This document shows positions 2,294-64,000 of a stretch of 64,000 nt of DNA, piece after piece (the stretch's first letter is position 1; every line of letters begins with the position of its first letter). Made by a program: the position numbers and the translations under genes. The notes below the pieces were generated by a model. It was not told the DNA's origin. It did not search any database and saw only the letters and a list, made by a program, of their open reading frames with translations. The stretch is from contig CAXXLQ010000001.1 of the NCBI GenBank assembly GCA_963668695.2, positions 1 through 64,000 on the forward strand. Reading direction: 5' to 3'. Origin of the DNA: Vicinamibacteria bacterium (lineage in GTDB: Bacteria > Acidobacteriota > Vicinamibacteria > Marinacidobacterales > Marinacidobacteraceae).

Positions 2294-2510
2294 GCAGCCT
2301 GTGGTGGAACCCGGGTGAGCGCCGAGCCCGGTGAGGCCCAGTTCTCCCGGTGGGGGCCCGGCTGACAAGGCGCGTGAGGGAGGAATACCTGGTGTATTTC
2401 GACCGAAACGCAACGCAGAACGGAGCGAAGCGGAGTGGTTCAGCCGGGATGGATCGCCGGGCGAGCCCCCACCGGGAGAACTGGGCCGCCTGGGTTTCAC
2501 CACAGGCTGC
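2294..2510. mobile_element. MITE copy 1 (217 bp)
   Basis: Terminal inverted repeats GCAGCCTGTGGTGGAACC / GGTTTCACCACAGGCTGC, flanked by TA on both sides; homologous to 12713..12948 and 44300..44622. Confidence 0.85.
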
Positions 2511-3610
2511 TAGCCCCGCGAAGCCCGCTGGGCGCGCAGCCGCGCAACCACCAGCGGCCGGGCGATCTCGTTGAAGGCGAGCAGGAGTGCGTCGAGCTGC
2601 ATCCGCTTGTTGCCGTAGGAGCGGTACATGTTGCGGTCGGTCTCCTCGACGAGGAGCAGCGCCTCCGCGAAAGCGCTCCCGGGCGCGAGTTCGGCGATCT
2701 TCCGCAGGTGTCCGGCATCGCCGGAGACCGCCGCGCTCTCGGAACAAAGAGCCGCCAGATCGCGAAGGGTGGCGCGGAGCAGCACCAGAACGGTCTGCAG
2801 TTCATCGATGTGGCCCGCCTTCCGGCTGCGGGGAGAGGCCTTCATGAGTCGTTCGGTCAGCGCCGTCCGCGCCGGCGGCGCGATGCCCCGGCCGACGATC
2901 ACGGCCATCCGTTCGGCCTCCTCGGCGAGCGGCAACAGCCGGTCGCGCGGCAGCGCGAGCGCCCGCGCGAGGTCGCCGCGGGCGGCGGCCGCGGCGACCA
3001 CCGCTTCTTCCGGCGGGTAGTCGTGCGCCTCCTGCAGCCGCGCGGCGACCGCCGGCGTGGTGGGCGCCGCGAAGCGCCAGCGCTGGCAGCGGGAGACGAT
3101 CGTGGGGAGGAGCGCCGCCTCCCGGGTGGCGCAAAGAATCAGCCCGAGCCACGGATGCGGCTCTTCGAGCGTCTTGAGGAGCGCGTTGGCGGCCGGGGGG
3201 TTCATGGTGTCCGCGGCCTCGATCACCAGGACGCGCCGCCGCCCTTCGAAGGGATGGGTTCGCACCGCGGCGATCGCCTGGCGGACCTCGTCCACCCGGA
3301 TCGGCTTGCCGCTCTCGGGCCTCAGGATCCGAACATCCGGGTAGGGCCCGCCCGCCGGACCGGTCCCGCGGCCGGCCTCTCCGCCCGTGCGGAACGCCGA
3401 GTCCGTCCCCACGATGCGTTGGTGGAGCACGCGGGTGGCCTCGGACTCCGGGTCCCGGTCGGAACTGTTCACGATGGCCGAGAGCGCGATCGCCGCCTCC
3501 ACCGTGGGGGCGCCGGAAGGCCCGCTCAGCAGGAGGCTTTGCGGCAGCCGGCCGCTCGCGGCAAGCCCGGCCAACCGCGGGAACGGCGCGGGGATCGGAA
3601 ACCCGGACAC
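2510..3610 (-). CDS. holB: DNA polymerase III delta' subunit
   Basis: PDVRIL, IRVDEVR, VIEAADTMNPPAANALLKTLEEP, LLPTIVSRCQ; directly downstream of tmk. Confidence 0.9.
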   Translation of the reverse strand: MSGFPIPAPFPRLAGLAASGRLPQSLLLSGPSGAPTVEAAIALSAIVNSSDRDPESEATRVLHQRIVGTDSAFRTGGEAGRGTGPAGGPYPDVRILRPESGKPIRVDEVRQAIAAVRTHPFEGRRRVLVIEAADTMNPPAANALLKTLEEPHPWLGLILCATREAALLPTIVSRCQRWRFAAPTTPAVAARLQEAHDYPPEEAVVAAAAARGDLARALALPRDRLLPLAEEAERMAVIVGRGIAPPARTALTERLMKASPRSRKAGHIDELQTVLVLLRATLRDLAALCSESAAVSGDAGHLRKIAELAPGSAFAEALLLVEETDRNMYRSYGNKRMQLDALLLAFNEIARPLVVARLRAQRASRG

Positions 3611-3614
3611 CGCG

Positions 3615-4262
3615 TCAGCCCTTCCTTTCCGATCGGGCGGCGACCGTTGCCCAGGCCGCCTCGAACACTTCGTCGGGGCTCTGATACCCCCGGATCACGA
3701 CGACCCGCTCCGGTTCCTCGCGCGCGATCCGGAGGAAACTCTCGCGGACGTGGTGGTGGAACCGCTCGGCCTCCTGCTCGATCCGGTCGGTTCCCTTGAG
3801 GCGCGCGAAACCGGCGGCGACCGGCAGATCCAGCACCAGCGTGAGGTGCGGGCGGAAGCCTCCGGTGACCGCCTGGTCCACCGCCAGGATCTGTTCCACC
3901 GGCAGACCCCGGCCCCCGCCCTGGTAAGCGATCGTCGAATCGGTGAAGCGATCGGAGATCACCACCTCGCCCCGGAGGAGCGCCGGGCGGATCACCTCGG
4001 CGATGTTCTGCGCCCGGGCCGCGAAAAAGAGCGCGAGTTCGGTTTCGGGGGCGAGCGGTCCGCCGGTGTGCAGCAGCAGTTGCCGGATGACTTTCCCGGC
4101 GGCGGTGCCGCCCGGTTCGCGGGTCAGCGTGACCCGGCGCCCTTCGCGGCGCAGCCGCGTGCCGAGACGCTGGGCCAACGTGGACTTCCCGGCGCCATCA
4201 ACCCCCTCGACGGTCAGGAACAGCGCCGAATCCGGGAGCCCGGATCCCGCGTTTCCCGACAA
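3615..4262 (-). CDS. tmk: Thymidylate kinase
   Basis: EGVDGAGKST P-loop, TREPGGT, DRFTDSTIAYQGGGRG. Confidence 0.95.
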   Translation of the reverse strand: MSGNAGSGLPDSALFLTVEGVDGAGKSTLAQRLGTRLRREGRRVTLTREPGGTAAGKVIRQLLLHTGGPLAPETELALFFAARAQNIAEVIRPALLRGEVVISDRFTDSTIAYQGGGRGLPVEQILAVDQAVTGGFRPHLTLVLDLPVAAGFARLKGTDRIEQEAERFHHHVRESFLRIAREEPERVVVIRGYQSPDEVFEAAWATVAARSERKG

Positions 4263-4323
4263 ATTCGAAGAAAAGCTCGAAACGGGCTTACGACCGGGCC
4301 GGTGGGGCGGCTACCGGCCAGCC

Positions 4324-4848
4324 CTACCGGAACGTGGGGTTGAAGATCGGGACGTTCGAGCCGCACATCCGCTCGCGCGCGGAGCGTTCCCAGACCTCCC
4401 GCGGCACCGAGGGTCCCTCGGTCTCGCAGTGCGCCTCGAACGCGGCAGTCAGGTTGGCCGCGACCATGTCCGGAGCCATCCGTTCGATGTGCCGCCGTTC
4501 GAGCATGTGGATCAACTGGCCGTCCTTGAAGAGCGCGATGGCCGGGGACGACGGCGGGACGTCGGTCATGTAGCCGCGGGCGCGGTCGGTCGCATCGCGG
4601 TCCACCCCGGCGAAGACCGTCCCCATCTGGTCCGGGATCCGGGTGTGCTGGAGCGCCATGGTGACGCCGGGCCGTGCGGAGCCGGCGGCGCAGCCGCAGA
4701 CCGAGTTGACCACCACGAGGGCGGTTCCGGGCTTCGCCAGCATCTCGTCCACGTCTTCGGCATGATGGAGCGGCGTCACCCGGCAGTCGGAGAGTTCCTC
4801 CCACATGGGGCGAACGGCGTCGGGGTCATAGAGAGGGGGAAGCGGCAT
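4324..4848 (-). CDS. BrxA/BrxB (YphP/YqiW) family bacilliredoxin
   Basis: VVNSVCGCAAGSARPG, TVFAGVD, PPSSPAIALFKDG signature. Confidence 0.9.
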   Translation of the reverse strand: MPLPPLYDPDAVRPMWEELSDCRVTPLHHAEDVDEMLAKPGTALVVVNSVCGCAAGSARPGVTMALQHTRIPDQMGTVFAGVDRDATDRARGYMTDVPPSSPAIALFKDGQLIHMLERRHIERMAPDMVAANLTAAFEAHCETEGPSVPREVWERSARERMCGSNVPIFNPTFR

Positions 4849-4905
4849 GTGGAATCTCCTGGGGAAATCTCCTGGGTGGGCGCAACCCGGAAGGATACCG
4901 TCCGC

Positions 4906-6846
4906 TCAGTTACCGGCGGCGGCCGGCTCGCCGAGCGAGAACGCGACCAGTTTGTTGCCGGTGCCGCGTCCCACGGCGACCACCACGAACTGGACTCCCT
5001 CGGGGGATTCGTAGGTCATGGGGTTCGCGTAGGAACTGGCTCCGAGCGGGTGGGCCCACAGCTCTTCACCGGTGGTCTTGTCGATGGCGAAGAGGTGGTC
5101 GGCGCCTCCCGTGAAGAAGACGAGCCCGCCTCCGGTGACCATGGGTCCCGGGGCGCCCACGACCCCGAGCCGCTCGTCCCCGATTTCCACGCCCGCGAGC
5201 GCCTGGTGATCGCGGACGAGCGGGTTGTTGCCCGCGGGGACCTGGAAGAGGTGCTCCCCGGTGTTCAGATCGATCGCGGTGATCGTGCCGTACGGCGGCT
5301 TGTTGATCGGCAGCCCGTTCGGGAGGTTCAGCGACCGGCGGGCCCGGTCCAGCCCGTAGCGGCCTTCGGTCTGGTCGGGGTTGGCTTCGGTGATGGCGAG
5401 CAGCGCGGGGAACTCGTTGGCCTTGATGTAGATCACTCCGGTTTCGGGATCGGCCGCCGCTCCGCCCCAGTTCGCACCGCCGAGGATGCCGGGACTGGCG
5501 ATCGTCCCTTCGATCGAGGGCGGGTTGTAGAGGCCCCCCATCCGGTACTTACGGACGATTTCGAGCGCCTCCTCCCGGAGCTCCGGGGTGAACGCGATCA
5601 CGTCCTCCTCGGTGAAACCCTGTTTCGCGAAGGGTGCCGGGCGGGTGGGGAAGGGCTGGGTCGCGGCCGTCCGCTCGCCGGGGACATCGCTTGCCGGGAC
5701 CGCGCGGTCCTCGATGGGCCAGACCGGTTCGCCGGTCACCCGGTCGAAGACATAGACGAACCCGGTCTTCGCCGGGGCCGCGACCGCGTCGATCTCCCGG
5801 CCGTCCACGTTGATGGTGAGCAGGGTGGGCGCTGCCGGCAGGTCGTAGTCCCACAGACCGTGGCGCACGGTCTGGAAGTGCCAGACCCGCTCGCCGGTCG
5901 AGGCGTCGAGACAGACGATGGCCTCGGCGTAGAGGTTGTCACCGAGGCGCATCCCCCCGTAGTAGTCGTTGCTCGGCGTCCCTACCGGCAGGTAGATCAG
6001 ACCCCGTTCGGCGTCGAGCGACATGGGCGCCCAGACGTTCGTGTGCCCCACCCGGTCCCAGGATCCGTCCTCCCAGGTGTCGTTTCCGAACTCGCCGGGC
6101 TGCGGGATCAGGTTGAAGGACCAGACCAGCTCGCCGGTACGGGTGCTGAACGCCTGCACGTTGCCCGGCGGATCGCGTTCGTAGACGAAGCGGTCCCAGA
6201 CGCCGTTCCCGAGGATCACCAGGTCCTCGAAGACGACCGGAGGCGAGGTCTGGGTGTAGTGGAGGCGGTTGATGGGCCACAGGAGTTGCGCCGTGAGGTC
6301 GATCTCGCCGCCGTCCCCGAACGAGGGATCGGGTTCCCCGGTGACGGTATCGATGGAGATGAGCCGCCAGCGGCTGTTCAGGAAGACCCGCCGCTTGCCG
6401 TCACCGTCCTCCCAGAGCGCGACCCCCCGGTGGACGAATCCGGTGCCGTTCGGGACCTGCCCCCACTCGGTGATCCGGGGGTCGTAGGTCCACTCGACTT
6501 CGCCGGTGTCCGGGTTCAGGGCGACGACTTTGTTATAGGCGGTGCTGACGTACATGACCCCGTCACGGACGACCGGGGTGTTCTCGAAACTGCCCGGGCG
6601 CACGGGGTTGTCGGGGACGGGCAGCCGGGGCCCGCTGAGCGGACCCTCGCCGGTATCCCACTCCCAGGCGAACTTCAGGTTGGCCACGTTCTCCCGATTC
6701 ACCTGGGCGAGCGGGGAGTAGTGCATCGACCCCGGGTCGCCACCCCAACTCGGCCATTCGACGCGGGCGGCGGCGCCGGGAGCCTCCTGGGCGGAGGATT
6801 CGGCCGCGAAGGCGGCGAGGAACAAAAGGACGGCGAGTCGGGTCAT
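4906..6846 (-). CDS. PQQ-dependent dehydrogenase (glucose/quinate type), secreted
   Basis: Signal peptide; HYSPLAQVN, HRGVALW, HGLWDYDLPAAP, GGANWGG, PPYGTITAIDL, ANPMTY. Confidence 0.9.
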   Translation of the reverse strand: MTRLAVLLFLAAFAAESSAQEAPGAAARVEWPSWGGDPGSMHYSPLAQVNRENVANLKFAWEWDTGEGPLSGPRLPVPDNPVRPGSFENTPVVRDGVMYVSTAYNKVVALNPDTGEVEWTYDPRITEWGQVPNGTGFVHRGVALWEDGDGKRRVFLNSRWRLISIDTVTGEPDPSFGDGGEIDLTAQLLWPINRLHYTQTSPPVVFEDLVILGNGVWDRFVYERDPPGNVQAFSTRTGELVWSFNLIPQPGEFGNDTWEDGSWDRVGHTNVWAPMSLDAERGLIYLPVGTPSNDYYGGMRLGDNLYAEAIVCLDASTGERVWHFQTVRHGLWDYDLPAAPTLLTINVDGREIDAVAAPAKTGFVYVFDRVTGEPVWPIEDRAVPASDVPGERTAATQPFPTRPAPFAKQGFTEEDVIAFTPELREEALEIVRKYRMGGLYNPPSIEGTIASPGILGGANWGGAAADPETGVIYIKANEFPALLAITEANPDQTEGRYGLDRARRSLNLPNGLPINKPPYGTITAIDLNTGEHLFQVPAGNNPLVRDHQALAGVEIGDERLGVVGAPGPMVTGGGLVFFTGGADHLFAIDKTTGEELWAHPLGASSYANPMTYESPEGVQFVVVAVGRGTGNKLVAFSLGEPAAAGN

Positions 6847-6893
6847 GAGGGTGGATTATCGGGGAGGGGTTGGCCCGTTCGACGAGATCTGCA

Positions 6894-7304
6894 TCAGCTC
6901 TCCTCTGGAGGCGCAAGCAATCGCAGCGACGGAAAATAGGTCCGGTAGCGGCGCGCGTCCCTGGTGATGAGTGTCAGATCGGCCACGACCGCGTGGGCCC
7001 CGATGTAGAAGTCAGGCAGCGGGGACCGCCGTCTCCCGCCCGCTCGCCGGTAGCGCTCGTAGGCGCGCGATGCCGGAAACGCGGCGTCATACGGCAGCGA
7101 CCGCCTCTCGATGTCGAGCTGTTGCAACCAGCGATCCAGGGCTTGGGCATCGGCGAAATCGAGCGCCACCTCCGCGTAGATGATCGGGTTGATGGAGACG
7201 TTTCCTTCCGCGAGGGCGTCTTCCAGCACGCGTTCCGACCAATCCCGCCACGTCGTGTCGTTCGTGGAGATGTCGAGCAAGACGTTTGCGTCCGCGAGGA
7301 ACAC
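6894..7304 (-). CDS. VapC-type PIN domain toxin
   Basis: LADANVLLD...IIYAE...PLPDFYIGAHA...LITRD. Confidence 0.9.
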   Translation of the reverse strand: MFLADANVLLDISTNDTTWRDWSERVLEDALAEGNVSINPIIYAEVALDFADAQALDRWLQQLDIERRSLPYDAAFPASRAYERYRRAGGRRRSPLPDFYIGAHAVVADLTLITRDARRYRTYFPSLRLLAPPEES

Positions 7305-7535: not shown

Positions 7536-7663
7536 GGTAAGAAAGTCTAACCGCGACAGTCTTACCAACGCTGCGGGGAAGGCAGGGGAACGCCGACCCC
7601 CGGCCAGTTGCTGTGAAAATGCAGTCGCCCGGGACGCCGACAACCCGGATGGCGCGCAGGCAA

Positions 7664-7727
7664 GGGAACGCCGGCCAGTCCTCCCGGTGGGGGCCTTCAG
7701 ACCGGCACCGCGCGGGAGCGCGAAACC
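7664..7727 (+). repeat. REP-like double hairpin interrupted by the 20-bp motif (7675..7694)
   Basis: GGGAACGCCGG[20-mer]CTTCAGACCGGCA, compared with intact copies at 20987 and 42995. Confidence 0.75.
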
Positions 7728-7923
7728 AGCGCCGATGACGTTGCGCCATGGCAAGTTGACGGCCGCGTCTTTTTCATGACGGGCGAGGGTGTGCAGGAGG
7801 ACCCGATCATGAGGGTTTCTCCCCGTGGGGGCCGGCACAGCCCGCCGCGGGTGGGCGGAGCGCGAGTTCCTTCCTCTCCTGATGGCGCCGGCTGCGTTTC
7901 GTCCCGAGAGCCATCATTCCCGC

Positions 7924-12710: not shown

Positions 12711-12712
12711 TA

Positions 12713-12948
12713 ACAGCCTGTGGTGAAACCCAGGCGGCCCAGTTCTCCCGGTGGGGGCTCGAGCGGCGATCCATCCCGGCTGAACCACTCCGCTTCGCTG
12801 CGTTCTGCGTTGCGTTTCGGTCGAAATACACCCGGGCCAGTTCTCCCGGTGGGGGCTCCTCCCTCACGCGCCTTGTCAGCCGGGCGCCTCGCCCCCACCG
12901 GGAGAACTGGCCGCTCTCGGCGCTCACCCGGGTTCCACCACAGGCTGT
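12713..12948. mobile_element. MITE copy 2 (236 bp, opposite orientation to copy 1)
   Basis: TA-ACAGCCTGTGGTGAAACC ... GGTTCCACCACAGGCTGT-TA. Confidence 0.85.
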
Positions 12949-12950
12949 TA

Positions 12951-20884: not shown

Positions 20885-21031
20885 GGGAGCGCCGGTCTTC
20901 AGGCCCCCACCGGGAGAACTGGCCGGCATCGCCCGCGCAGCGGGCGAAACTCCCATCGCTAACCGAGAAGAAGCGCGGGGACGGCAAGGAGCGCCGGTCT
21001 TCAGACCGGCATCGCGCGGGAGCGCGAAACC
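20885..21031 (+). repeat. Two REP-like elements; the first carries the 20-bp motif (20903..20922)
   Basis: GGAGCGCCGGTCTTCAG[20-mer]CCGGCATCG and intact GGAGCGCCGGTCTTCAGACCGGCATCG. Confidence 0.8.
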
Positions 21032-21168
21032 GGCCCCGATGATGCTGCGCCCTGTCGACGTGACTGCCGCACCCTCTCCCAGCACTGGATGGCACGACGA
21101 CTTGCCGCTTCCTCGTACGGCGCTGGCGTGGGAGCACCCACGCCGCGGCGCCTCCGGGACAGGATCAG

Positions 21169-38076: not shown

Positions 38077-41000
38077 TCACTCCGCAAACCTCTTCCGGTC
38101 GAACACCGCGTACGCCGTCGGAATCACCACCAGCGTCAGCAGGGTCGAGACCGCCAGTCCGCCGATGACCGTGATCGCCATCGGGCCCCGGATCTCGGCT
38201 CCTTCGCCGAGTCCGAGCGCCATCGGGGCCAGCGCCAGGATCGTCGTGAGGGTGGTCATCAGGATCGGCCGCAGCCGGATCTCCCCGGCGGCGACGATGG
38301 CCTCCGCCTTCGCCATCCCGTCCCGCCGCAGCCGGTTGATGCAGTCCACCAGCACGATGGCGTTTTTGACCACGATGCCGGCCAGCATGACCACCCCGAT
38401 GAGCACGATCACGCTGATCGTGGATCCCGAGAGCAGGAGCGCCCAGACCACCCCGATCGCCCCGAGCGGGATCGTGAAGAGGATCAGGAACGGATGCAGC
38501 AGCGACTCGAACTGGCTCGCCATCACGAAGTAGACGAGAAAGATGGCGAGGCCGATGGCGAGCGCCAGGCTCGCGAAGGAACGCTCCATCTCCTCGCTCT
38601 GTCCCCCGAAGCGGGTGGAGACCCCCGGGGCGAGCCCCAGCCCGGCGACGGCGGTCTCGATGGCCTCGGTGGCGCTGGCCAGGTCCACCCCGTCGAGGTT
38701 GCCCGAGACCACCACCGCGGGGCGCTGGCCGACCCGGCGGAGTTCGGCCGGTCCCTCGCTGAGCTCGGCGTTCCCGAGCGCGCGGAGCGGCACCGGGCGC
38801 GCTCCCTCGGAGTACACGATGAGTTCGGGCACCGCGGCGGTGTGCGAGCGGAGGTTCTCGCTGCCCCGCACCACGATGTCGATCCGCCGGTCGCCCTCGT
38901 CGAGCCGGGTGGCGACCTCGCCGCGGAGCTTGGAGCGAAGCCCTTCGGACGCCTGGTCCACCGTGAGTCCGAGGCTCGCCAGGCGATCGGCGGCGAATCG
39001 GACCCGGATCTCCGGACTCCCCGCCTCGGCGGTCGAACGCACGTCGGCGAGCCCGGGGACCCCGGCGACGGCCGCCTGCACCCGGCGGGCGCTCGGCACC
39101 AGCAGCGAGCGGTCCTCGGAAAAGACCTCGACCTCGACGGGCTGGCGGACGCTGAAGTAGGACGGCCGGCCGAACTCGTAGCGGATCCCCGGCCGCTCCG
39201 CGAGACCGGCCCGGACCCTCTCGATCGCGGCCGCCTCGGCCTCCTTGTCACCCCGGTCCGCCATGACGACCTGGACCCGGCCCTGGTGCTCGGCGCGTCC
39301 CGAGCCGCCCGCGAAGCCGCCTCCGGCGGCGGTGCCCGCTTCGGTGGTCACCCGGAGCACCCCCGGGAGGTCGAGCGCGGCGGTGCCCACACCGTCCACC
39401 ACCGCATCGGTCGCGGTCACTGCGGATCCCTCCGGGAGGTGGACGTCGAAGTGGAACTCGCCCTGGGAGAGCGCCGGAATGAGTTCGACGCCGATGGCGG
39501 TTCTTCCGACGGCGAGCGATCCGGCGAAGAGCCCGGTCGCCAGCGCGAAGACGGTCACCGGGTGGCGGAGGGCGGCGCGCAGCACCGGCGGATAGGCGCG
39601 CGTGACCGCGGTCTCGGCCGCTCTAAAGGCCCACAGCAGCGGCCGCAGCGGAAGGATGATTACGCGCCCGACCTTGCGAAAACCCGTGCGGACCGCGCCC
39701 AGCGCCCGGACGGTGATCGTCGCCTTGGCCTCCCCGGTGGAACCGGGAGCGGCTCCGCCCCGGCTGGCGAGGACCGGGATGAGCGCCAGCGAGAAGCCCA
39801 GCGAGGCGAGGATGGAGATGGAGACGGTGAGCGCCTGGTCGTGGAAGAGCTGTCCGGCGACTCCTTCCACGAAGACGATGGGCAGGAACACCGCGACGGT
39901 GGTCAGGGTCGAGGCGATCACCGGGCCCGCGACCTCCACCGTGCCGGCGATCGCCGCATCCCGCCAGTTCTCCCGGTGGGGGCCGGGCTCGCCCCCGTGG
40001 CGCCGGCGGTGGATCGCCTCCAGCACCACGATGGAGTCGTCGAGCAGCATGCCCACCCCGAGCGCGAGCCCGCCGAGCGACATGATGTTCAGCGAAAGCC
40101 CCATCTGCTGCATCACGAAGAAGGTGGCGATCACCGAGACGGGAATGGCCATCGCGACCACCGCCGTCGCCCGCCGTTCGCGGAGAAACAGCGCGATCAC
40201 CAGGATGGCGAGCAGGCCCCCCTCCCAGGCGTTGCGCACCACCTCCGAGATGGCGCCTTCGATGAACTGCGACTGGTCGAAGAGGACGGCCAGCGACACC
40301 CCGGCGGGAACCGAGTCCTCCACCGCTTCGAGCTGGGCCCGGATGCCTTCGGCCACCCGCACCGTGTTCGCGTCTCCCTCCTTGAAGATCCTGACCTCGA
40401 CGCCCTCGGCGCCGCCCTGCCGCAGGATCACTTCCTGATCCTTGAACCCGGAACGGACCTCCGCCACGTCGGCGAGCCTCACGAGGCGCCCGCTGGCGTC
40501 CTTCACGATCACGGCGTCAATGCGGTCCAGCGTGTCCAGCTCGTTCAGCGTCCGGACCAGATAACGGGCCTCGTCCTCGTACACGCTGCCGCTGGCCAGG
40601 TTCACGTTGTTGTCGGCCAGCGCCGTCCGGACCTCCGCGACGGTGATGTCGTAGGCGCCAAGCCGGCCCTCGTCCACATCCACCTGGATCTCCCGGACCA
40701 GGCCGCCCTCGATCCGGACCGCGGCGACCCCGTCCACCGCGTCGAGGTCCTTCTTGAGGTCCTCTTCCGTCCATTGCCGGATACCGGAGAGCGGCAGTCC
40801 CCCGGAGACGCCGATCCGGAAGATGGCGTCCGACGCGGGGTCGAAGCGCAGGAGCCGGGGCCGCTCGGCGTCTTCCGGAAGGAGGACGCCATCGAGCTTT
40901 TCCCGCACGTCGAGCCCGGCGAAGTCCATGTTCGTGTCCCAGACGAACTCCAGCGTGACCTCGGACACCCCGGCGCGGGAACGGGAAGTAACCCGGCGGA

Positions 41001-41232
41001 GCCCGGGAACGACCGAGGCCGCCTCCTCGATGGGGCGCGTGACCAGCGTTTCGACCTCGATGGGCGCCGCGCCCGCCATTCGGGTCTCGACCGTCAGGGT
41101 GGGATAGGAGATCTCCGGCAGCAGATTGACCGGCAGCCGGCCGAGGGCCACGAACCCGAACACGCAGGTGGCCACGGTGAACATGGCGACGGTCACCGGC
41201 CGCCGGATGCAGGAAGTGATCAGGGATTTCAC
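38077..41232 (-). CDS. AcrB/AcrD/AcrF family RND permease 1
   Basis: RRPVTVAM, GMLLDDSIVV, GIVVKNAIVL, RLRPILMT. Confidence 0.93.
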   Translation of the reverse strand: MKSLITSCIRRPVTVAMFTVATCVFGFVALGRLPVNLLPEISYPTLTVETRMAGAAPIEVETLVTRPIEEAASVVPGLRRVTSRSRAGVSEVTLEFVWDTNMDFAGLDVREKLDGVLLPEDAERPRLLRFDPASDAIFRIGVSGGLPLSGIRQWTEEDLKKDLDAVDGVAAVRIEGGLVREIQVDVDEGRLGAYDITVAEVRTALADNNVNLASGSVYEDEARYLVRTLNELDTLDRIDAVIVKDASGRLVRLADVAEVRSGFKDQEVILRQGGAEGVEVRIFKEGDANTVRVAEGIRAQLEAVEDSVPAGVSLAVLFDQSQFIEGAISEVVRNAWEGGLLAILVIALFLRERRATAVVAMAIPVSVIATFFVMQQMGLSLNIMSLGGLALGVGMLLDDSIVVLEAIHRRRHGGEPGPHRENWRDAAIAGTVEVAGPVIASTLTTVAVFLPIVFVEGVAGQLFHDQALTVSISILASLGFSLALIPVLASRGGAAPGSTGEAKATITVRALGAVRTGFRKVGRVIILPLRPLLWAFRAAETAVTRAYPPVLRAALRHPVTVFALATGLFAGSLAVGRTAIGVELIPALSQGEFHFDVHLPEGSAVTATDAVVDGVGTAALDLPGVLRVTTEAGTAAGGGFAGGSGRAEHQGRVQVVMADRGDKEAEAAAIERVRAGLAERPGIRYEFGRPSYFSVRQPVEVEVFSEDRSLLVPSARRVQAAVAGVPGLADVRSTAEAGSPEIRVRFAADRLASLGLTVDQASEGLRSKLRGEVATRLDEGDRRIDIVVRGSENLRSHTAAVPELIVYSEGARPVPLRALGNAELSEGPAELRRVGQRPAVVVSGNLDGVDLASATEAIETAVAGLGLAPGVSTRFGGQSEEMERSFASLALAIGLAIFLVYFVMASQFESLLHPFLILFTIPLGAIGVVWALLLSGSTISVIVLIGVVMLAGIVVKNAIVLVDCINRLRRDGMAKAEAIVAAGEIRLRPILMTTLTTILALAPMALGLGEGAEIRGPMAITVIGGLAVSTLLTLVVIPTAYAVFDRKRFAE

Positions 41233-42531: not shown

Positions 42532-42606
42532 GCGCGGTTAGCTCAGCGGGAGAGCGCCTGCCTTACACGCAGGTGGTCGCAGGTTCAAATCCTGCACCGC
42601 GCACCA
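42532..42606 (+). tRNA. tRNA-Val(TAC), CCA encoded
   Basis: GCGCGGT/ACCGCGC acceptor stem, CCTGC-CTTACAC-GCAGG anticodon arm, GCAGG-TTCAAAT-CCTGC T arm. Confidence 0.95.
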
Positions 42607-42994
42607 CGCCGGCCCTGAGCGGGGTCGCCGTCCGGTTTCGTGCACGGTGCCACGGGGCTGATTTGGCAAGACCCCGCTCAGGGCCGGCCCGGCGCTTCGC
42701 GCCGGACTTCCGAAGTGCGGCGGGAGCCGCACGGAGACCCCGGAGCAGGAGGGTTGGAGGTCGGGGAACCCGACTCCCAACCGCTCCTGGCTCGGGAATC
42801 GCAACTCCCTTGCGCGCCTGCGGCGCACTGCGGCGAGTTTCGATTTTGCGCTGTCAATTTGTGAAAGGGGGGTGCCCCCCTTTCACACTTTCCCCCCGGT
42901 CATGCGGGCGGCGAACCTCCGGTTCGCCGCCATTTCGTTTTTTCGCTTGCTTGGCGCTCCGCCACCGCTACTCCGCCAGCCGGAATATGGGAGA

Positions 42995-43045
42995 GGGAAC
43001 GCCGGTCTTCAGACCGGCACCGCACGCCGCAGGCGTGCGAAACGC
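42995..43045 (+). repeat. REP-like double hairpin, intact
   Basis: GGGAACGCCGGTCTTCAGACCGGCACCGCACGCCGCAGGCGTGCG. Confidence 0.75.
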
Positions 43046-43243
43046 GTTCATCTGAGCATCCCTCAAGGCGCTCTACAGCGGGAACGCCTTCAAGAGACAC
43101 CGACTCTTACGTCTTTGGGAGAACCGCAGCCCACCAAACCCGGTGGAGGATCGCGCCGGCCCGGAAATGTCCACCCCCTCCGCTGACACCCCACAGGTGC
43201 GCCGCAGGCGTCTGATATCTGATAAGATATGACATCATACATG

Positions 43244-44003: not shown

Positions 44004-44979
44004 TCAGCGACGAATCTGACGCCCGAGGACGCTGAGGGCAGCAGCAGCAGCCGTCTTGTGGTCCTTGCGCCACGGCGTTCCCGCCTCTCGGCCGAACCGG
44101 GCGATGAGCGAGGTGACCTCGGATACGTCGACCCCCATTGCCTCGGCCGCCAGTACCGCCGGGTCCGTCCGGCGCGGGTACCTCCGGACCTCCATGCCGC
44201 GTTCGGATGCCGCGTTCGCATGCCGCGTTCGAATGCCGCGTTCGGCCGCCGCCTGGGCTAGGGACTCGCGGTACAGCATCCCGTCGGCGGCCAGGGTTAA
44301 CAGCCGGTGGTGAAACCCACGCGGCCCAGTTCTCCCGGTGGGGGCTCGGCCGGCGATCCATCCCGGCCAAACAGCCTGTGATGAAACCCACGCGGCCCAG
44401 TTCTCCCGGTGGGGCCTCGGCCGGCGATCCATCCCGGCTGACCGCGTCGCTTCGCGCCGCTCATCGTTGCGTTTCGGTCGAAATACACTCGGGCCAGTTC
44501 TCCCGGTGGGGGCTCCTCCCTCACGCGCCTTGTCAGCCGGACCCCCACCGGGAGAACTGGGCCTCGCCCCCACCGGGAGACTGGCCAGCCTCGGCGCTCA
44601 CGCGGGTTCCACCACAGGCTGTTAAAGGACGTGACCTCAGGACCTCCTCGAGCGAGTCGGGCAAGCTGTCATACGGACTCGCGGGCAGGATCAGCACCCG
44701 GGCCCGAAAGGTCGCGAGCATCGTCGAGATCGCCGCGCTCGCGTGTTCCGCTACCGATCGCCTCACCCGGTTCACGAGGTCGGTTGCCGCTCGGATGTCC
44801 AGCTCCAAGGCCTCGTGGTGGTAGGGCGCGCTCGGGAGACCCTTCGGGAGGCCCTTGTCGATCAGCTCGACGCGCCGGCGATCGAGGAAGACGGGAGCGG
44901 AGTCTGCTACCGCGAGGGTGACCAGCTCGGCCCGCGCGTAGTGGTCGGAGGCCCCGATGACGGGTTCGGCGACACTCAC
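44004..44979 (-). pseudogene. Hypothetical gene split by MITE copy 3
   Basis: Removing the MITE and one TA restores ...EEVLRSRPLTLAADGMLYRE...; motifs DRRRVEL, PYHH, PWRKDHK. Confidence 0.8.
44300..44622. mobile_element. MITE copy 3 (323 bp, left ~70 bp tandemly duplicated)
   Basis: TA-ACAGCCGGTGGTGAAACC ... GGTTCCACCACAGGCTGT-TA; empty site GGGTTAAAGG. Confidence 0.88.
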
Positions 44980-50397: not shown

Positions 50398-50469
50398 GCG
50401 CGGTTAGCTCAGTGGGAGAGCGCCTGCCTTACACGCAGGTGGTCGCAGGTTCAAATCCTGCACCGCGCA
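50398..50469 (+). tRNA. tRNA-Val(TAC), second copy, CCA not encoded
   Basis: Same as 42532 copy except one D-loop base; followed by CTG instead of CCA. Confidence 0.9.
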
Positions 50470-58100: not shown

Positions 58101-58107
58101 CTCCCCG

Positions 58108-58653: not shown

Positions 58654-58688
58654 CATCTTCAATTCTGGAGACTGGGACGCTGGAGGTC

Positions 58689-61106
58689 ATGCACCGTCAT
58701 TCGCTGATCCACAAGGTGTTCTGGAGGACCGTCGAGGCGGCCGTTTTGTTGCTGGTCGGCGCGTTCCTGGGCGCCGGCAGCGCGACCGCCGCCCAGGACG
58801 GCTCGGCTACTCCACCCACGGACCGCCGGGTTCAGGATGATCAGGACGACCTCGGGCTGTCTTCCCGTGGTTCCGGCAGGCTCGCCGACAGCCAGCAGGC
58901 GCTTGACTCGACGATGGAAAGCCGCATTCTCGGGCCGCCCGCCCCCGCGGCGGGAGAAGCCGTCAGCCGTGACGCCGACGGCCGGGTAACCCTCCGCGCC
59001 TTCCGGCTCGCCGAGCCGCTCACCGTGGACGGGATCCTCGACGACCCGGTCTACGACCAGGTGCCCGCAGCCGAGGGGTTTGTCCAGCAAGAGCCCGACG
59101 AAGGTGCGGCCGCCTCGGAGGGCACCCGCATCTGGGTGCTCTACGACACGGACAGCCTCTACATCGCCGCCGAACTCGAAGAAGACCATCCGGAGCGCCT
59201 GATGGCCAACGAGATGCGCCGCGACGCGCGGAACATCGACTGGGGCGACAGCTTCTCGGTCATCATCGACACCTTCTACGACCGCCGGAACGGCGTCCTC
59301 TTCCACACGAACGTGCTGGGCGCCCTGTTCGACGCGCAGGTGACCGACGAACGAAACGTAAACGCCGACTGGAACACGGTCTGGTGGGTGAAGAGCCACC
59401 TTCTCGACGACAGGTACACCGTGGAGATCCGAATCCCGTTCCGCTCGCTGCGTTATGCGGCCGGCGGCGCCCAGCTCTGGGGGATCAACTTCCGCCGCCG
59501 CATCAAGCACCGAAACGAACAGGCCTTCTTCACCCCGACGCCCCAGGCCTACAGCCGCGACGGATTGACCCGTCTCTCCAACGCGGCGACGCTCGTTGGC
59601 CTCGAGGCGCCCCCCGGCTCGCGAAGAATGGAACTGAAGCCGTACGCGATCGGATCCCAGAGCCACGTTCCCCTGCGGGACATCGACAACGAGTGGTCCG
59701 GCGATATCGGCGCCGACTTCAAGTTCGGCGTCACCGACGGGCTTACCGCCGACATCACCTGGAATACCGACTTCGCGCAGGTCGAGGACGACGAGACCCA
59801 GATCAACCTGAGCCGCTTCAGTCTCTTCTTCCCGGAAAAGCGCGAGTTCTTCCTCGAGGGGCAGGGGGTCTTCGACTTCGGCGGCCGGCAAACCCGCGCC
59901 CGCGCCTTCGGAGGCGGCTCCAACGATGCTCCCATCCCGTTCTTCAGCCGGTCGATCGGCATCTCGGGCGGCAGCGCGGTGCCGATTCTCGGGGGCGCCC
60001 GCCTCCACGGCCGCGCCGGCGCCTACCAGATGGGGCTCATGAACATCCAGGCCGGCGACGTGCCCGGCCTCGACGTGGAGTCCACGAACTTCAGCGCCTT
60101 CCGGATGAAGCGGGACATCTTCTCGCGCTCCAACATCGGGGTGATCGCCACCCATCGGAGCCTGAACGCCGCCGGCACCGGTTCCAACTCGCTCTACGGC
60201 GTGGACGGAGTCTTCAACCCGACCGATCACATCCGGATCAACACCTTCTACATGGCGACCAGCGAGCCCGGGGTGGACACCGGCCATCAGGCTGCCAGCT
60301 ACCTGGGCCAGTTCCGCTACGACACCGACCTGATCGATGTCACCGCCGAACGCCTCTACCTCGGCGAGGACTTCAATCCCGGGATGGGTTTCCTCCGCCG
60401 GAGCGACTTCACGAAGAACGGCGCTTCGTTCCAGTTCTCGCCGCGCCCCCGCGGCATCAAGGCGATCCGCCAGTTCGAGTTCAAGGTGGACGCGAACAAC
60501 TACGACCGTCCCGACGGCGAGATGGAGACGCGGGAATACAAGTTCGAGGCGAGGGCCGTTCTGGAGAGCAGCGACCGCATCTTCCTCGACCACACCGTGA
60601 CCGAAGAGCGTCTGCTCGGGGGGTTCGACCTCTCCAGCGAGGTCGGAGTGCCCGCCGGCAACTACCGTTTCGCCCGCACCGGGGTACGGTTGAGAATGGG
60701 ATCCCACCGCCCGTTATCGGGCTTTTTGCGTTACGAGTTCGGCGATTTCTTCGGGGGGAGCCGGCAGGAAGTGAGTTACATGGGACGCGCCGAGCTCACC
60801 CAGCGCTTTTCCGTCGAGCCGAACGTCAGCCTGAACTGGATCACCGTCCCCCAGGGTGACGTGCGGGCGACCGTGAGCTATCTCCGCGCGACGTACACCG
60901 TCTCGCCCCGCAGCTTCCTGGGCGCGCTCGTCCAGTACAACTCGGCGGCGCAACTGATGTCCGCGAACGTCCGTTTCCGCTGGGAATACTCGCCCGGTAG
61001 CGACCTGTTCGTGGTCTTCAGCACGAACCGCGACGGGGATGACGGGCTCTCCGGGCTCAGCGACCGGACGCTCGTCGTCAAGTTCACCCGCCTGTTCCGC
61101 TTCTGA
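58689..61106 (+). CDS. CBM9-like + DUF5916 outer-membrane protein, paralogue 1
   Basis: Signal peptide, VDGILDDPVY, IDTFYDRRNG, NTDFAQVEDD, FFPEKREFFLEG, C-terminal F. Confidence 0.88.
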   Translation: MHRHSLIHKVFWRTVEAAVLLLVGAFLGAGSATAAQDGSATPPTDRRVQDDQDDLGLSSRGSGRLADSQQALDSTMESRILGPPAPAAGEAVSRDADGRVTLRAFRLAEPLTVDGILDDPVYDQVPAAEGFVQQEPDEGAAASEGTRIWVLYDTDSLYIAAELEEDHPERLMANEMRRDARNIDWGDSFSVIIDTFYDRRNGVLFHTNVLGALFDAQVTDERNVNADWNTVWWVKSHLLDDRYTVEIRIPFRSLRYAAGGAQLWGINFRRRIKHRNEQAFFTPTPQAYSRDGLTRLSNAATLVGLEAPPGSRRMELKPYAIGSQSHVPLRDIDNEWSGDIGADFKFGVTDGLTADITWNTDFAQVEDDETQINLSRFSLFFPEKREFFLEGQGVFDFGGRQTRARAFGGGSNDAPIPFFSRSIGISGGSAVPILGGARLHGRAGAYQMGLMNIQAGDVPGLDVESTNFSAFRMKRDIFSRSNIGVIATHRSLNAAGTGSNSLYGVDGVFNPTDHIRINTFYMATSEPGVDTGHQAASYLGQFRYDTDLIDVTAERLYLGEDFNPGMGFLRRSDFTKNGASFQFSPRPRGIKAIRQFEFKVDANNYDRPDGEMETREYKFEARAVLESSDRIFLDHTVTEERLLGGFDLSSEVGVPAGNYRFARTGVRLRMGSHRPLSGFLRYEFGDFFGGSRQEVSYMGRAELTQRFSVEPNVSLNWITVPQGDVRATVSYLRATYTVSPRSFLGALVQYNSAAQLMSANVRFRWEYSPGSDLFVVFSTNRDGDDGLSGLSDRTLVVKFTRLFRF

Positions 61107-61250
61107 AAGGGACTTCGGACCGGCTCCCGGGTTCCGCCGCCCCTCCCCCACGTCTCTCCCCGGTTCCGCGTCACGCCTCGTTCGGGAGAAGGGCTCGTTT
61201 TGCGGCGAGCCCAGGATCTCCGCTACCCCCGGAGGACGCTCGGAATGGAC

Positions 61251-61276
61251 GGAACCTTTCCGGTAGTCTGTTCGTT
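61251..61276 (+). promoter_or_regulatory. Putative ECF-sigma promoter, second copy
   Basis: GGAACC-16 bp-CGTT; spacer diverged, boxes conserved. Confidence 0.5.
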
Positions 61277-61312
61277 GGTCTTCGAATTCCAATTGTCTGA
61301 TCGTCGGCTCCC

Positions 61313-63754
61313 GTGATTCGCTTTTCCTCGAGTGCCCGCAAGGCGTGGCGAGCCTCCGCTGCGGGGTTTTTCTTCCTGCTGGCTGGCGGTTCACTCGTTG
61401 CCGCGGGCGCCGAACGCACGCCGGCGGAACCCGCCCCGCACCCCTCGGACCGGCGGGTCCAGAACACTCAGGACACGCAGGACGATCAGGACGATCAGGA
61501 TGACCTTGCCCTTTCGCCCCGCGGCGCGGGTCGGCTCGCCGAACCGCAGCAGGCGCCCGTCAGCTCGGCGATGGCCGAGCGGATCCTCGGCCCGCCCGCT
61601 CCCGCGGCGGGAGAAGCGGTTAGCCGCGACGCCGGCGGCCGGGTAACGCTCCGCGCGTTCCGGCTCGCCGAGCCGCTCACCGTGGACGGGGTGCTCGATG
61701 ACCCGGTGTACGACCAGGTCCCGGCGGCAGAAGGATTCCTGCAGCAGGAACCCGACGAGGGTGCTCCGGTGTCGGAGTCCACGCGCGTCTGGGTGCTCTA
61801 CGACGCGGACAGCCTCTACATCGCCGCCGAGCTGGAAGAGGACCACCCGGAGCGGCTGACGGCCGGCGAGATGCGTCGGGACCACCGAAACGTCGGCTGG
61901 AACGACAGCTTCTCGGTCATCCTCGACACCTTCTATGACCGGCGGAACGGCTTCTTGTTCCACACGAACTCCCTCGGCGCCCTGTTCGATGGCCAGGTGA
62001 CCGACGAGCGGAACACGAACAGCGATTGGAACACCGTGTGGTGGGTGAAGACTCGCCAGCTGGAGGACGGGTGGACGGTGGAGATCCGGATCCCGTTCCG
62101 CTCGCTCCGCTACGCGGCCGGCGGACCCCAGCTCTGGGGGATCAACTTCCGCCGCCTCATCAAGCACCGCAACGAACAGGTGTTCTTTACTCCGACGCCC
62201 CAGTCGTACAGCCGGAACGGACTGCTGCGGCTCTCCAACGCCGCGACGCTCGTCGGTCTCGAGGCGCCCGCCGGATCCAGGCGGATGGAACTGAAGCCGT
62301 ACGCGATCGGCTCGCAGAGCCACGTTCCCCTGAACGACGTGCTTAACGACTGGTCGGGCGACATCGGCGGCGACTTCAAGTTCGGCGTCACCGACGGGCT
62401 CACCGCCGACGTGACCTGGAACACCGACTTCGCGCAGGTCGAAGACGACGAGAGCCAGGTCAACCTGAGCCGCTTCAGCCTGTTCTACCCGGAAAAGCGC
62501 GAGTTCTTCCTCGAGGGCCAGGGGGTCTTCGACTTTGGCGGCCGGCAGTCGCGCGGCTTCGGAGGCGGCTCCGACGCTCCCATCCCGTTCTTCAGCCGGA
62601 CGATCGGCATCTCGGGCGGCAGCGCGGTTCCGATTCTCGGGGGCGGCCGGCTTCACGGCCGCACCGGCGCCTACACGATGGGCCTCATGAACATCCAGAC
62701 CGGGGAAGTGGGCGGCCTTGATGTGGAGAGCACGAACTTCAGCGCCGTCCGGGTGAAGCGGGACATCCTTTCGCGCTCCAACATCGGGGTGATCGCCACC
62801 CACCGGAACGTCGGCGCCGGCGGCTCCGGGGCGAATTCGCTCTACGGGGTGGACGGCAACTTCGCCCCGACCGACAACATCCGCATCAACACCTTCTACA
62901 TGGCGACGACCGAGCCCGGAGTCGAGAACGGGCACCAGGCCGCCACCTATATGGGCCAGTTCCGCTACGACACCGATCTGATCGATGTCACTGCCGAGCG
63001 TCTCTATCTCGGTGAGGACTTCAACCCGGGGATGGGCTTCGTCCGCCGCCGGGATTTCACGAAGAACGCCGGAAGCCTCCAGTTCTCGCCGCGCCCCCGC
63101 GGCATCAAGGCCATCCGCCAGTTCGAGTTCAAGGCCGGCGCGAAGAACTACGACCGCCCCGACGGTGAGATGGAGACCCGCGAGTACCAGGTCGACGCGC
63201 GAATCGTCTTCGAGAGCAGCGATCGCCTCATGTTCGACCACAGCGTGACCGAAGAGCGGCTCCTCGAGGGTTTCGACCTCTCGAGTGACGTTGGAATCCC
63301 CGCCGGCAACTATCGGTTCTCCCGGACCGGGGTAAGGGTGCGGATGGGATCCCATCGCTCCTTCTCGGGCATGTTCCGCTACGAGTTCGGTGACTTCTTC
63401 GGGGGCACCCGGCAACAGGTGAGTTATTGGGGACGCGCCGAGATGAACCAGCGCTTTTCCATCGAGCCGAACATCAGCCTCAACTGGATCGAGGTGCCCG
63501 GCGGCGAGGTACGGGCGCAGGTCAGCCGGCTCCGCGCCAGCTACACCGTCTCGCCCCGGAGTTTCCTGGGTGCGCTCGTCCAGTACAACTCGGCGGCGCA
63601 GCTACTTTCCGCGAACGTGCGTTTCCGCTGGGAGTATTCACCGGGCAGCGATCTCTTTGTCGTCTTCAGCACGAACCGCGACGGGGATGACGGGTTGGCG
63701 GGGCTCAGCGACCGGACGCTCGTCGTCAAGTTCACCCGTTTGTTCCGGTTTTAG
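61313..63754 (+). CDS. CBM9-like + DUF5916 outer-membrane protein, paralogue 2
   Basis: Colinear with and highly similar to paralogue 1. Confidence 0.88.
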   Translation: MIRFSSSARKAWRASAAGFFFLLAGGSLVAAGAERTPAEPAPHPSDRRVQNTQDTQDDQDDQDDLALSPRGAGRLAEPQQAPVSSAMAERILGPPAPAAGEAVSRDAGGRVTLRAFRLAEPLTVDGVLDDPVYDQVPAAEGFLQQEPDEGAPVSESTRVWVLYDADSLYIAAELEEDHPERLTAGEMRRDHRNVGWNDSFSVILDTFYDRRNGFLFHTNSLGALFDGQVTDERNTNSDWNTVWWVKTRQLEDGWTVEIRIPFRSLRYAAGGPQLWGINFRRLIKHRNEQVFFTPTPQSYSRNGLLRLSNAATLVGLEAPAGSRRMELKPYAIGSQSHVPLNDVLNDWSGDIGGDFKFGVTDGLTADVTWNTDFAQVEDDESQVNLSRFSLFYPEKREFFLEGQGVFDFGGRQSRGFGGGSDAPIPFFSRTIGISGGSAVPILGGGRLHGRTGAYTMGLMNIQTGEVGGLDVESTNFSAVRVKRDILSRSNIGVIATHRNVGAGGSGANSLYGVDGNFAPTDNIRINTFYMATTEPGVENGHQAATYMGQFRYDTDLIDVTAERLYLGEDFNPGMGFVRRRDFTKNAGSLQFSPRPRGIKAIRQFEFKAGAKNYDRPDGEMETREYQVDARIVFESSDRLMFDHSVTEERLLEGFDLSSDVGIPAGNYRFSRTGVRVRMGSHRSFSGMFRYEFGDFFGGTRQQVSYWGRAEMNQRFSIEPNISLNWIEVPGGEVRAQVSRLRASYTVSPRSFLGALVQYNSAAQLLSANVRFRWEYSPGSDLFVVFSTNRDGDDGLAGLSDRTLVVKFTRLFRF

Positions 63755-63863
63755 CAGCCCCTAGACAAGGTCGCGCGGCCCAGTTGCTGGGTAAACGCAG
63801 GTCCGACGTGCACCCACAATCTGGACGGCCGAGCCCTCGACAGAGCAGATGGCGCGCAGGCCC

Positions 63864-63910
63864 GGGAACGCCGGTGTTCACACCGGCACAGCGGCCCGCA
63901 GGGCCGCGGC
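63864..63910 (+). repeat. REP-like double hairpin
   Basis: GGGAACGCCGGTGTTCACACCGGCACAGCGGCCCGCAGGGCCGC. Confidence 0.7.
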
Positions 63911-64000
63911 GGTGCAGACCCCAACCGTCGGGATGGCTTCCTTCTCGGCGCGTGCCCCTCAAGGGCAGGATGGCGCGCGACAGCGGGCCCCCACCGGGAG

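Follow-up and report, generated by a model that had tools for sequence, protein, structure and literature searches.

Whether a DNA unit of about 20 bases can enter new sites on its own is the question raised by a stretch of 64,000 nucleotides (the window) at the start of a 144.5-kb contig (C1) from the genome of a Vicinamibacteria bacterium (G000; 4 contigs, 4.1 Mb, 67% G+C, 91.7% complete). Mobile DNA is thought to need either an enzyme gene of its own or ends that a transposase can grasp, and the smallest accepted elements, miniature inverted-repeat transposable elements (MITEs) and repetitive extragenic palindromic (REP) doublets forming hairpins (REPINs), measure 50-300 bases and have inverted ends. 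Self-inserting units of ~20 bases have, to our knowledge, been reported only once, in Nostocaceae in 2008. The window contains many copies of a 20-mer, CCAGTTCTCCCGGTGGGGGC, and an earlier note based on the letters of the window had proposed that it inserts independently of the larger repeats around it. In the reading that we favor, with a probability of roughly two in three, the 20-mer is a very small non-autonomous mobile insertion module resembling the small dispersed repeats (SDRs) of Nostocaceae, and it would be installed by cut-and-patch at CGG-type sites by a factor that recognizes the unit.

The 20-mer, its copies and its carriers

By searching the window with at most 3 mismatches, 12 copies of the 20-mer were found, where dinucleotide shuffling gives an expectation of 0.03 and 0 of 100 shuffles reached 12 or more; a thirteenth copy is a 1-base-deletion variant, and a fourteenth is severed by the window edge and whole in the contig. 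The count of at least 14 copies in both orientations, given beforehand, is thus reproduced. The whole-genome totals are 962 exact copies and 1,601 at ≤2 mismatches. Because the assembly is redundant, the non-redundant 3.76 Mb was used for counts where relevant, and on this chromosome 895 exact copies stand against an expectation of 1.3e-4 under a third-order Markov model; the backwards-read control pattern of the 20-mer had 0 matches. The total load of G000 is ~1,500 copies (1,497 by the motif count used in the cross-genome comparison). Both strands carry equal numbers of copies, and neither the replichore bias raised in the earlier note (164 versus 194 when the main MITE slots are left out) nor a bias relative to neighboring genes was seen. 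In a viral contig collection, exact matches to the 20-mer numbered 0.

The ends of the unit are sharp. In the sequence logo of 1,600 copies, positions 0-19 carry ~2 bits and positions outside -2 to +19 stay below 0.9 bit, with a flank preference for G at -2 and for G or C at -1. A blind assembly of 14-mers returned exactly the 20-mer as its top unit (count 1,273), the other high-copy sequence being the MITE described below; overall, the unit extends over 18-21 bases. In line with the earlier note, it is neither palindromic nor bounded by terminal inverted repeats: the ends CCAGTT.. and ..GGGGGC are not complementary, and no hairpin was found in the unit, the 22-mer folding at -1.9 kcal/mol (z = +0.63; 150 of 200 shuffles fold as well or better). 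The copies also combine with each other, in tandem arrays with an 18-base period and up to 5 units and in frequent convergent pairs that form 22-bp stems.

The window contig is a haplotig of the chromosome region C4:304184-421223, at 99.4-99.9% identity except for one 98.1% block. Further redundancy is found between a 31-kb contig (C3) and C4:3505-3538 kb, and between the two ends of the chromosome contig (C4:13.6-148 kb and C4:3783-3914 kb). The redundant haplotype copies are 97.6-99.9% identical; they probably explain the 9% "contamination" figure, and they offer strain-level comparisons at no extra cost. Beyond the presence of these haplotigs, no support was found for the motif being an adapter, polishing or assembly artefact, a reading whose chance is practically negligible. 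The copy inside a gene at 39964 is spanned with 0 gaps by contigs from three independent studies, including a 2019 sponge metagenome, and the 20-mer is present in short-read and long-read assemblies of many species, among them metagenome-assembled genomes from many projects and technologies. Sponge metagenomes are among the sequencing runs that contain window DNA.

A single TA-flanked MITE family, of which the chromosome has ~500 copies, carries about three quarters of the motif copies, in some six fixed slots. This MITE has the terminal repeat TA[AG]CAGCC[TG]GTGGTG[AG]AACCC, measures ~180 bases without motifs and steps in length from ~180 to ~280 bases; the left end frequently occurs as a tandem duplication of 71-base period. 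Three MITE copies lie in the window and hold 2, 3 and 5 motifs, as first described. MITE copy 1 (2292..2512) is TA-flanked with the terminal inverted repeat TAGCAGCCTGTGGTG; its central slot A is empty (GGTATTCC on the other strand), and exact motifs occupy slot D, after GAGGC (2338..2357, + strand), and slot B, adjoining the left inverted repeat (2465..2484, - strand). In MITE copy 2 (12711..12950), slots B (12739..12758, +), A (12837..12856, +) and C (12891..12910, -; before GAGG on the motif strand) are filled, and the copies in slots A and C form a 22-bp perfect stem. MITE copy 3 (44298..44624) has the 71-base tandem duplication of the left end and holds five motifs, namely, slot B of the first duplicated left end (44326..44345, +), slot B of the second (44397..44416, +; 1 mismatch), slot A (44494..44513, +), slot D (44541..44560, -; 1 mismatch) and slot C (44566..44584, -), the last with a 1-base deletion that makes it invisible to a mismatch-only search. 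The arrangement reported in the earlier note is borne out: relative to GAGG, the motif follows in copy 1, precedes in copy 2 and does both in copy 3, and copy 1 is the only one of the three whose central site is empty.

The remaining copies mostly lie in the arms of REP-like hairpins or beside a second hairpin type (GCCGACC..GGTCGGC or GCCGGCC..GGCCGGC); the copy severed by the window edge (63987..64000, -) adjoins a GCCGGCC..GGCCGGC hairpin. The REP-like composite repeat consists of GGAGCGCCGGTCTTCAGACCGGCATCGC, followed by a variable GC-rich hairpin and then GAAAC (window 20984-21040, 42990-43050 and 7664-7730, and many C4 sites). The hairpin GCCGG-T-CTTCAG-A-CCGGC is intact at 20993..21010 (GCCGGTCTTCAGACCGGC, the target state) and again at 43001..43018. 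At 7675..7694 (+), a T5C variant of the motif takes the place of the T in GCCGG-T-CTTCAG of the left arm, and at 20903..20922 (-), it is the right-arm A, a T on the opposite strand, that the motif replaces, just as had been read from the window before.

Clustering of the flanks gave 229 contexts, the 40 largest of which hold 1,384 copies, mainly in MITE slots and REP-like arms; among the 162 singleton contexts, many are diverged members of hairpin families. Genes were called with a home-made codon-usage caller, by which 81% of the chromosome is coding, and the predicted coding sequences contain 26 of 1,600 copies, 98% lying outside predicted genes. One of the genic copies is the motif at 39964..39983 (+), inside a gene on the - strand (38077..41232) whose 1051-aa translation reads as a resistance-nodulation-division (RND)-type efflux transporter; it adds a net +18 bases in-frame, with GPHRENW replacing A. 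Because most copies occupy fixed MITE slots or REP-like hairpins, the copy number is mostly passive hitch-hiking on these two carriers, for roughly three quarters of the copies. The earlier proposal of independent insertion therefore has to be divided: the unit does insert on its own, as described in the next section, but most of its copies are hitch-hikers and not separate events.

Mini-MITEs, in which a single motif is all that separates the left and right terminal repeats (L171 2069-2150, G000:C4 ~668190-668275; also L151 in G010), are found as well; they look like full MITEs that lost the DNA between the direct motif copies in slots B and C'. An IS630-like (DDE_3) transposase gene (L171 930-2070, G000:C4 ~667050-668195), flanked by TA and its own inverted repeats GTGTGGTGTCC, is placed exactly between a full MITE and a mini-MITE. 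Apart from the core TGTGGTG, these inverted repeats have nothing in common with the MITE ends, and the IS630-like element is therefore an uncertain candidate for the parent of the MITE.

Insertion, loss and the target site

Independent insertion is supported by filled and empty states of the same site, which coexist at the paralogous, orthologous and haplotig levels. Among paralogous sites on the chromosome, slot A is filled in 157 of 337, slot B in 152 of 211, slot E in 14 of 206 and the REP left arm in 41 of 109; slots C and D are filled in 276 of 454 (one copy in 143, two in 94 and three in 39). As many as 15 different slot combinations occur among 35 strictly anchored MITEs. At slot A (524 sites, 262 filled), 39 flank columns are polymorphic and none is linked to the state of the slot, each allele being 36-64% filled. 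The base at -3 matters at this slot, NCGG sites being filled in 253 of 432 cases versus 9 of 92 for other sites; the C/T variant at -4 is neutral (61% versus 59% filled). At least 144 of 156 flank-anchored slot-A copies are perfect, and the neighboring MITE columns are 3-6% diverged, which points to copies that are young or kept homogeneous.

By aligning ~1 Mb of syntenic sequence with the congeners G001, G004 and G008 (95%, ~90% and ~89% identity), dozens of orthologous sites were found to be filled in one species and empty in the other, in both directions; they include REP-like hairpins in unique surroundings, and orthologous REP-like hairpins show the 20-mer in place of T. Use of the same CCGG in both orientations is also seen in these alignments. 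The insertion in the RND gene, exactly +18 bases, is carried by G000 and its closest relative G001 and is absent in G003, G004, G008, G009, G010 and G014; the six empty congeners therefore polarize this event as an insertion. In loci of one other genus, at least five nested copies were found in which a complete unit lies at the internal CCGG^T of an older copy whose 3' half is retained. Finally, the haplotig alignments (263 kb, 2,047 mismatches) contain 184 shared sites and 7 clean motif indels of 15-19 bases, including a 19-base REP-arm difference that is flanked by GCC and resembles loss, and a 15-base partial loss. Species and strains alike show continuing insertion and loss.

These deletions, together with the fixed MITE slots of some three quarters of the copies and the resemblance of the mini-MITEs to deletions between two motif copies, are what could be expected if the motif were an ancestral part of the MITE and the REP-like repeat, multiplied with them and lost by deletion, with no insertion of its own. 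We give this history a very small chance. It is at odds with the derived state of the RND insertion (six of eight species are empty), with slot states that are unlinked to the MITE background and combine in a near-combinatorial way, and with copies nested within copies. It is also at odds with genomes in which the MITE is almost or wholly free of the motif: the MITE marker and the motif number 108 versus 11 in G010, 55 versus 1 in G020 and 103 versus 0 in G032 (another family), as compared with 654 versus 1,497 in G000. The 17-base MITE marker is also found in other families of the order that are without the motif, and by these distributions the carrier MITE is older than the motif. The two alternatives that had been set against independent insertion at the outset, artefact and ancestry followed by deletion, are thus contradicted by the independent contigs, the RND polarity and the motif-poor MITE carriers.

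Among relatives, the motif (≤1 mismatch) is confined to one family: of the 27 other genomes in it, 21 have the motif, as against 0 of 173 from 18 other families of the class. The motif-free set includes G033, which is flagged as unpublished. The load ranges from 1 to ~1,500 copies across the family and, among complete or near-complete genomes of one genus, from 11 (G010) to 1,497 (G000). Exact copies make up 962 of the 1,601 copies at ≤2 mismatches in G000, 4 of 16 in G010 and 1 of 12 in G012; activity tracks copy number. The identical 20-mer occurs in at least five genera. A sister micro-element with two changed bases, CCGGTTCTCCCGGTAGGGGC, is present in another genus of the family (record OZ246946.1; L008, L009, L020, L030, L042 and L057), where it occupies the same MITE and REP sites, beside the canonical unit and nested copies. 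The motif also appears, in a typical REP-like context, on a 6-kb contig (JAKZVH010000183.1, L035) that was binned as "Gammaproteobacteria" but probably belongs to this acidobacterial family.

The identity of the sequence across genera, its ~1,500 copies with equal numbers on both strands and no replichore bias (164 versus 194), and the frequent convergent pairs with 22-bp stems are also compatible with a selected signal, such as a DNA uptake sequence or a site bound by a regulatory or nucleoid protein, which selection or a bias in uptake and recombination would maintain. Such a signal, uptake or binding, was among the candidate explanations of the earlier note, and we consider it improbable. 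The copies arise as insertions of 18-19 bases and not by point mutation, and 98% of them lie outside genes. Moreover, complete genomes of one genus differ ~100-fold in copy number (G000 1,497; G010 11), the low-copy genomes hold mostly decayed copies, and turnover at orthologous sites is fast, with neither a uniform density nor conserved orthologous positions.

The orientation of the unit at its target is fixed: the CCAG end lies against the left flank and, in most contexts, directly 3' of GG. Among the 229 contexts, the upstream 4-mers are CCGG in 66, CGGC in 35, CTGG in 27 and GCGG in 14, and together with the logo they agree with the first impression of a 5' flank that is usually GG or GGC. 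Both arms of the palindromic hairpin are used, each on the strand reading GCCGG^T, and a single CCGG at one MITE site has served as target from both sides. Targets include the GCCGG^T of REP-like hairpins, several MITE slots, the unit's own 3' end and its internal CCGG^T, and the arrays with an 18-base period fit insertion into the GGGG^GC end of an existing copy by the same rule. In filled and empty pairs, no target-site duplication was found, as had been claimed; the loss of bases, previously put at about 1-2, is in fact 1-3 (T; TAT with an extra G; GT or GC after a kept C; CG in the gene), and the stable quantity is the net gain of 18 or 19 bases.

Heterogeneous junctions of this kind, with 1-3 bases lost and no duplication, could also arise if there were no dedicated machinery and microhomology-mediated templated repair copied ~20 bases from existing motif copies. 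In such a route, a ..CGG 3' end at a break or stalled fork would anneal beside an existing copy, a low-processivity repair polymerase (e.g., of the Ku/LigD pathway) would extend it, and the end would rejoin its partner with a few bases lost; because of its high copy number, the motif would be its own preferred template. The left flank accords with this, being nearly always GG or GGC, as it is before most donor copies. So do the recurrence of variants such as T5C in several host types, which is expected if any copy can be the template, the failure to find a transposase-like candidate, and the presence of Ku in G000 and in 39 of 41 relatives. Repair copying, the main rival, is nevertheless unlikely in our view. 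The tract always starts and stops at the same bases, despite differing donor flanks, and no other abundant repeat fragment acts likewise. In nested pairs, the outer copy keeps its 3' half, whereas a homology-guided return would anneal to 9 identical bases and erase it. Ku is equally present in motif-free relatives and in G010, which has 11 copies, and self-templating leaves the origin of the family and its letter-perfect state across genera unexplained.

The search for machinery and the closest known systems

In G000, the Y1_Tnp profile (PF01797) of REP-associated tyrosine transposases (RAYTs) had 0 matches; as a control, the profile matches 6 of 14 reference genomes. RVT_1 was found in none of G000, G004, G008 and G018 and is present mainly in motif-free families; for this reason, a telomerase-like reading of the 18-base arrays was dropped. 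Neither Vsr nor a C5-methylase was found in G000, and cutting at CCGG by a Vsr/C5-methylase pair was rejected on these grounds; TnpB gave only a sub-threshold match of 21.7 bits. G000 does have a type I-E CRISPR-Cas locus (C4:3280870-3292650), with 29-base repeats at a 61-base period in an array at ~3.2809-3.2831 Mb and adjoining genes whose sizes fit cas2, cas1, cas6e, cas5e, cas7e, cse2, cse1 and cas3, Cas1 alone being confirmed by family search. Cas1 was rejected as the writer, since the locus is an ordinary type I-E locus with a repeat unrelated to the motif. The motif was likewise rejected as a CRISPR repeat, since the sole array found has a different 29-base repeat and the motif spacings are those of the MITE slots. 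A patch written by reverse transcriptase, HUH or Cas1 activity, as imagined in the earlier note, is therefore not supported.

No mover was found among the transposable elements inspected either. An IS110-family element is present as a single copy (L169 1199-2985, G000:C4 ~482100-483880) inside a hairpin, between GCCGACCGGAGGTC and GGC, and its right end GAAGGTC mimics the target; landing in REP-like hairpins is the usual habit of the IS110 family. The element was rejected because its only copy occupies another REP-like hairpin and its ends do not resemble the motif. The IS630-like gene near the MITEs was rejected, as its own inverted repeats differ. Around other DDE transposase genes, the 3.3-3.7-kb loci inspected contain no motif, save in unrelated neighbors, and no motif was found at the ends of the transposase loci inspected. 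Among the first 60-80 of >1,200 repeats, none of at least 450 bp resembles an insertion sequence. The motif had also been suggested to be the fixed footprint of an excising element; this was rejected, as no longer element bears the motif at its ends, no flank cluster of at least 5 copies extends beyond the MITE and REP contexts, and the motif is not a composite of inverted ends. Slots A and D do not have inverted-repeat flanks, which led to the rejection of quasi-palindrome template switching between them, and Ku was rejected as a discriminating factor because it is present with or without the motif.

The closest known system appears, from its behavior, to be the Nostocaceae SDRs, especially SDR5; the likeness is one of behavior, SDRs being defined by behavior and not by mechanism. 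SDR1-8 were reportedly described by Elhai et al. in 2008 as units of ~20-27 bases, and SDR4-6 are said to share a predicted secondary structure; the 20-mer unit measures 18-21 bases, just short of the range of ~21-27 bases reported for SDRs. Both are non-coding micro-units with hundreds of dispersed copies, sited within other repeats and confined to one lineage. For both, mobility is indicated by orthologous presence or absence and by copies inside other repeats (for the 20-mer, MITEs, REPs and its own copies), and both insert at a short palindromic site, which is HIP1 for SDR5 and CCGG here. The differences are the Acidobacteriota host, the unrelated sequence, the lack of a hairpin in the 20-mer, the CCGG target with 1-3 target bases replaced, and, in G000, the lack of any detected C5-methylase or Vsr by which the site might be marked or cut. 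SDR5 is described as entering the palindrome GCGATCGC at one exact point, after its third base and before its fourth (PMC4390886), and no SDR was found outside Nostocaceae (PMC5861425).

Other known classes resemble the 20-mer less closely in their defining features, and its identity as a REP/REPIN, MITE, uptake sequence or CRISPR repeat was rejected, as it fails the tests that define each. REPs and REPINs are described as mobilized by RAYTs, which are IS200-like Y1 HUH transposases (Bertels and Rainey 2011, PMC3116915), and REPs as having a conserved GTAG or CGTC head at one end (PMC3733652). The 20-mer shares with them an extragenic location, a repeat size of 20-40 bases, hundreds of copies, non-autonomy and convergent pairs that form long hairpins. 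In contrast to them, it is not palindromic, has GTAG or CGTC at neither end, shows no replication strand bias and occurs in a genome in which no Y1_Tnp was found; moreover, it enters REP-like hairpins and destroys them. Like a MITE, the motif is non-autonomous, intergenic and amplified, and it rides on a TA-flanked carrier; unlike a MITE, it has neither terminal inverted repeats nor a target duplication and is 5-10 times shorter than any MITE, and the carrier MITE itself is found without the motif in related genomes.

DNA uptake sequences (the Neisseria DUS and the Pasteurellaceae USS) are motifs of 10-30 bases with ~1,000-2,000 copies, equal in both orientations; inverted pairs of them occur. 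The 20-mer resembles them in copy range, strand parity, inverted pairs and its presence in related genera, but it arises by insertion, is nearly absent from genes, varies 100-fold in copy number within a genus and decays in low-copy genomes. The neisserial dRS3 repeat of the neisserial intergenic mosaic elements (NIME) is a 20-bp unit with hundreds of intergenic copies that form mosaic repeats; it has palindromic ends, is a target for phage or insertion sequence integration and is not known to insert by itself. The likeness to the 20-mer lies in a 20-bp intergenic unit that builds mosaic repeats, and the difference in the palindromic ends of dRS3. In the literature on repeats of sponge Acidobacteria, on short insertions without duplication and on "Marinacidobacterium", no description of the 20-mer element was found.

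A proposed cut-and-patch route and its meaning

Based on the results presented above, the steps of the favored reading may be outlined as follows. A nick or break would be made at a CGG-type site; the unit of 18-20 bases would then be installed as a patch, with the next 1-3 target bases replaced. The reaction would be performed or guided by a trans-acting factor that recognizes the 18-20-base unit, and this recognition could be the reason why the unit is letter-perfect across at least five genera. Neither a RAYT/IS200 transposase nor a standard reverse transcriptase, TnpB or a Vsr/C5-methylase pair would be this factor. The element would behave as selfish DNA, with no need of a cellular function. 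Most of the ~1,500 copies were multiplied passively as the carrier MITE and the REP-like hairpins amplified. The 22-bp hairpins, the deletions between copies and the 6-codon inserts in genes would be side effects. Cut-and-patch is favored because the ends of the unit are invariant although donor flanks differ, because the base at -3 matters without linkage at -4, because a single CCGG is used in both orientations, because nested copies retain the outer 3' half, and because the unit is letter-perfect across genera and decayed where copy number is low.

Several points weigh against this route. No enzyme, template or intermediate was found in these searches, and the mechanism is read from the junctions alone. 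The junctions are uneven, with 1-3 bases replaced, sometimes an extra 5' G or C, and a last base of C, T or G; such variation is more than a site-specific enzyme would be expected to leave and agrees with sloppy repair. In a few cases, the left flank is not GG, being CCCG in the gene, ATCC at slot F and AGCG or AACG at slot E. Many of the MITE events counted could be gene conversion and not new insertion. Filled right-arm REP copies carry a C-to-T change at -3, also at an orthologous site, which suggests that gene conversion between paralogues spreads some of the filled REP alleles. The haplotig differences come from a single long-read metagenome assembly and may include assembly noise, and the gene calls rest on the home-made caller mentioned above.

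A broader reading is that the family encodes an undescribed DNA-writing activity, either a protein or a protein with a small template, which would install a fixed sequence of 18-20 bases at CGG/CCGG-type sites with no target duplication and without HUH/RAYT, reverse transcriptase, Cas1-Cas2 or TnpB; SDRs would then be a second example of a wider class of micro-insertions. We regard this proposal as tentative and rather doubtful.

The same DNA has other features that lie apart from the 20-mer. Short tandem duplications (12-57 bases, often multiples of 3) are numerous both in genes and in spacers, and they vary between species and between haplotigs (C4 323569, 338474, 402202, 407394 and others) with no relation to the motif. 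An array of 23 kb, in which tandem units of ~351 bases are 90-94% identical (G000:C4:2803874-2826790), is probably a giant repetitive surface-protein gene. The sole Rfam matches in the window are two tRNA genes (42532-42603 and 50398-50469), and RNA contigs of one metatranscriptome overlap parts of the window stretch.

The occurrence of such a unit in a second phylum makes the question of micro-insertion testable, as there is a clear unit, a clear target and natural variants of the target. Further handles are given by the genic insertion polarized by six outgroup species, by the nested and tandem copies and by the strain-level turnover, and related complete genomes with 1,500 versus 11 copies provide a contrast for finding the factor responsible. 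If a dedicated factor does exist, it would write a defined 20-base tag at short sites and would be of interest as a tool. The 20-mer also bears on how the genomes of sponge symbionts evolve, as it builds 22-bp hairpins, promotes deletions between its copies and adds six codons to proteins.

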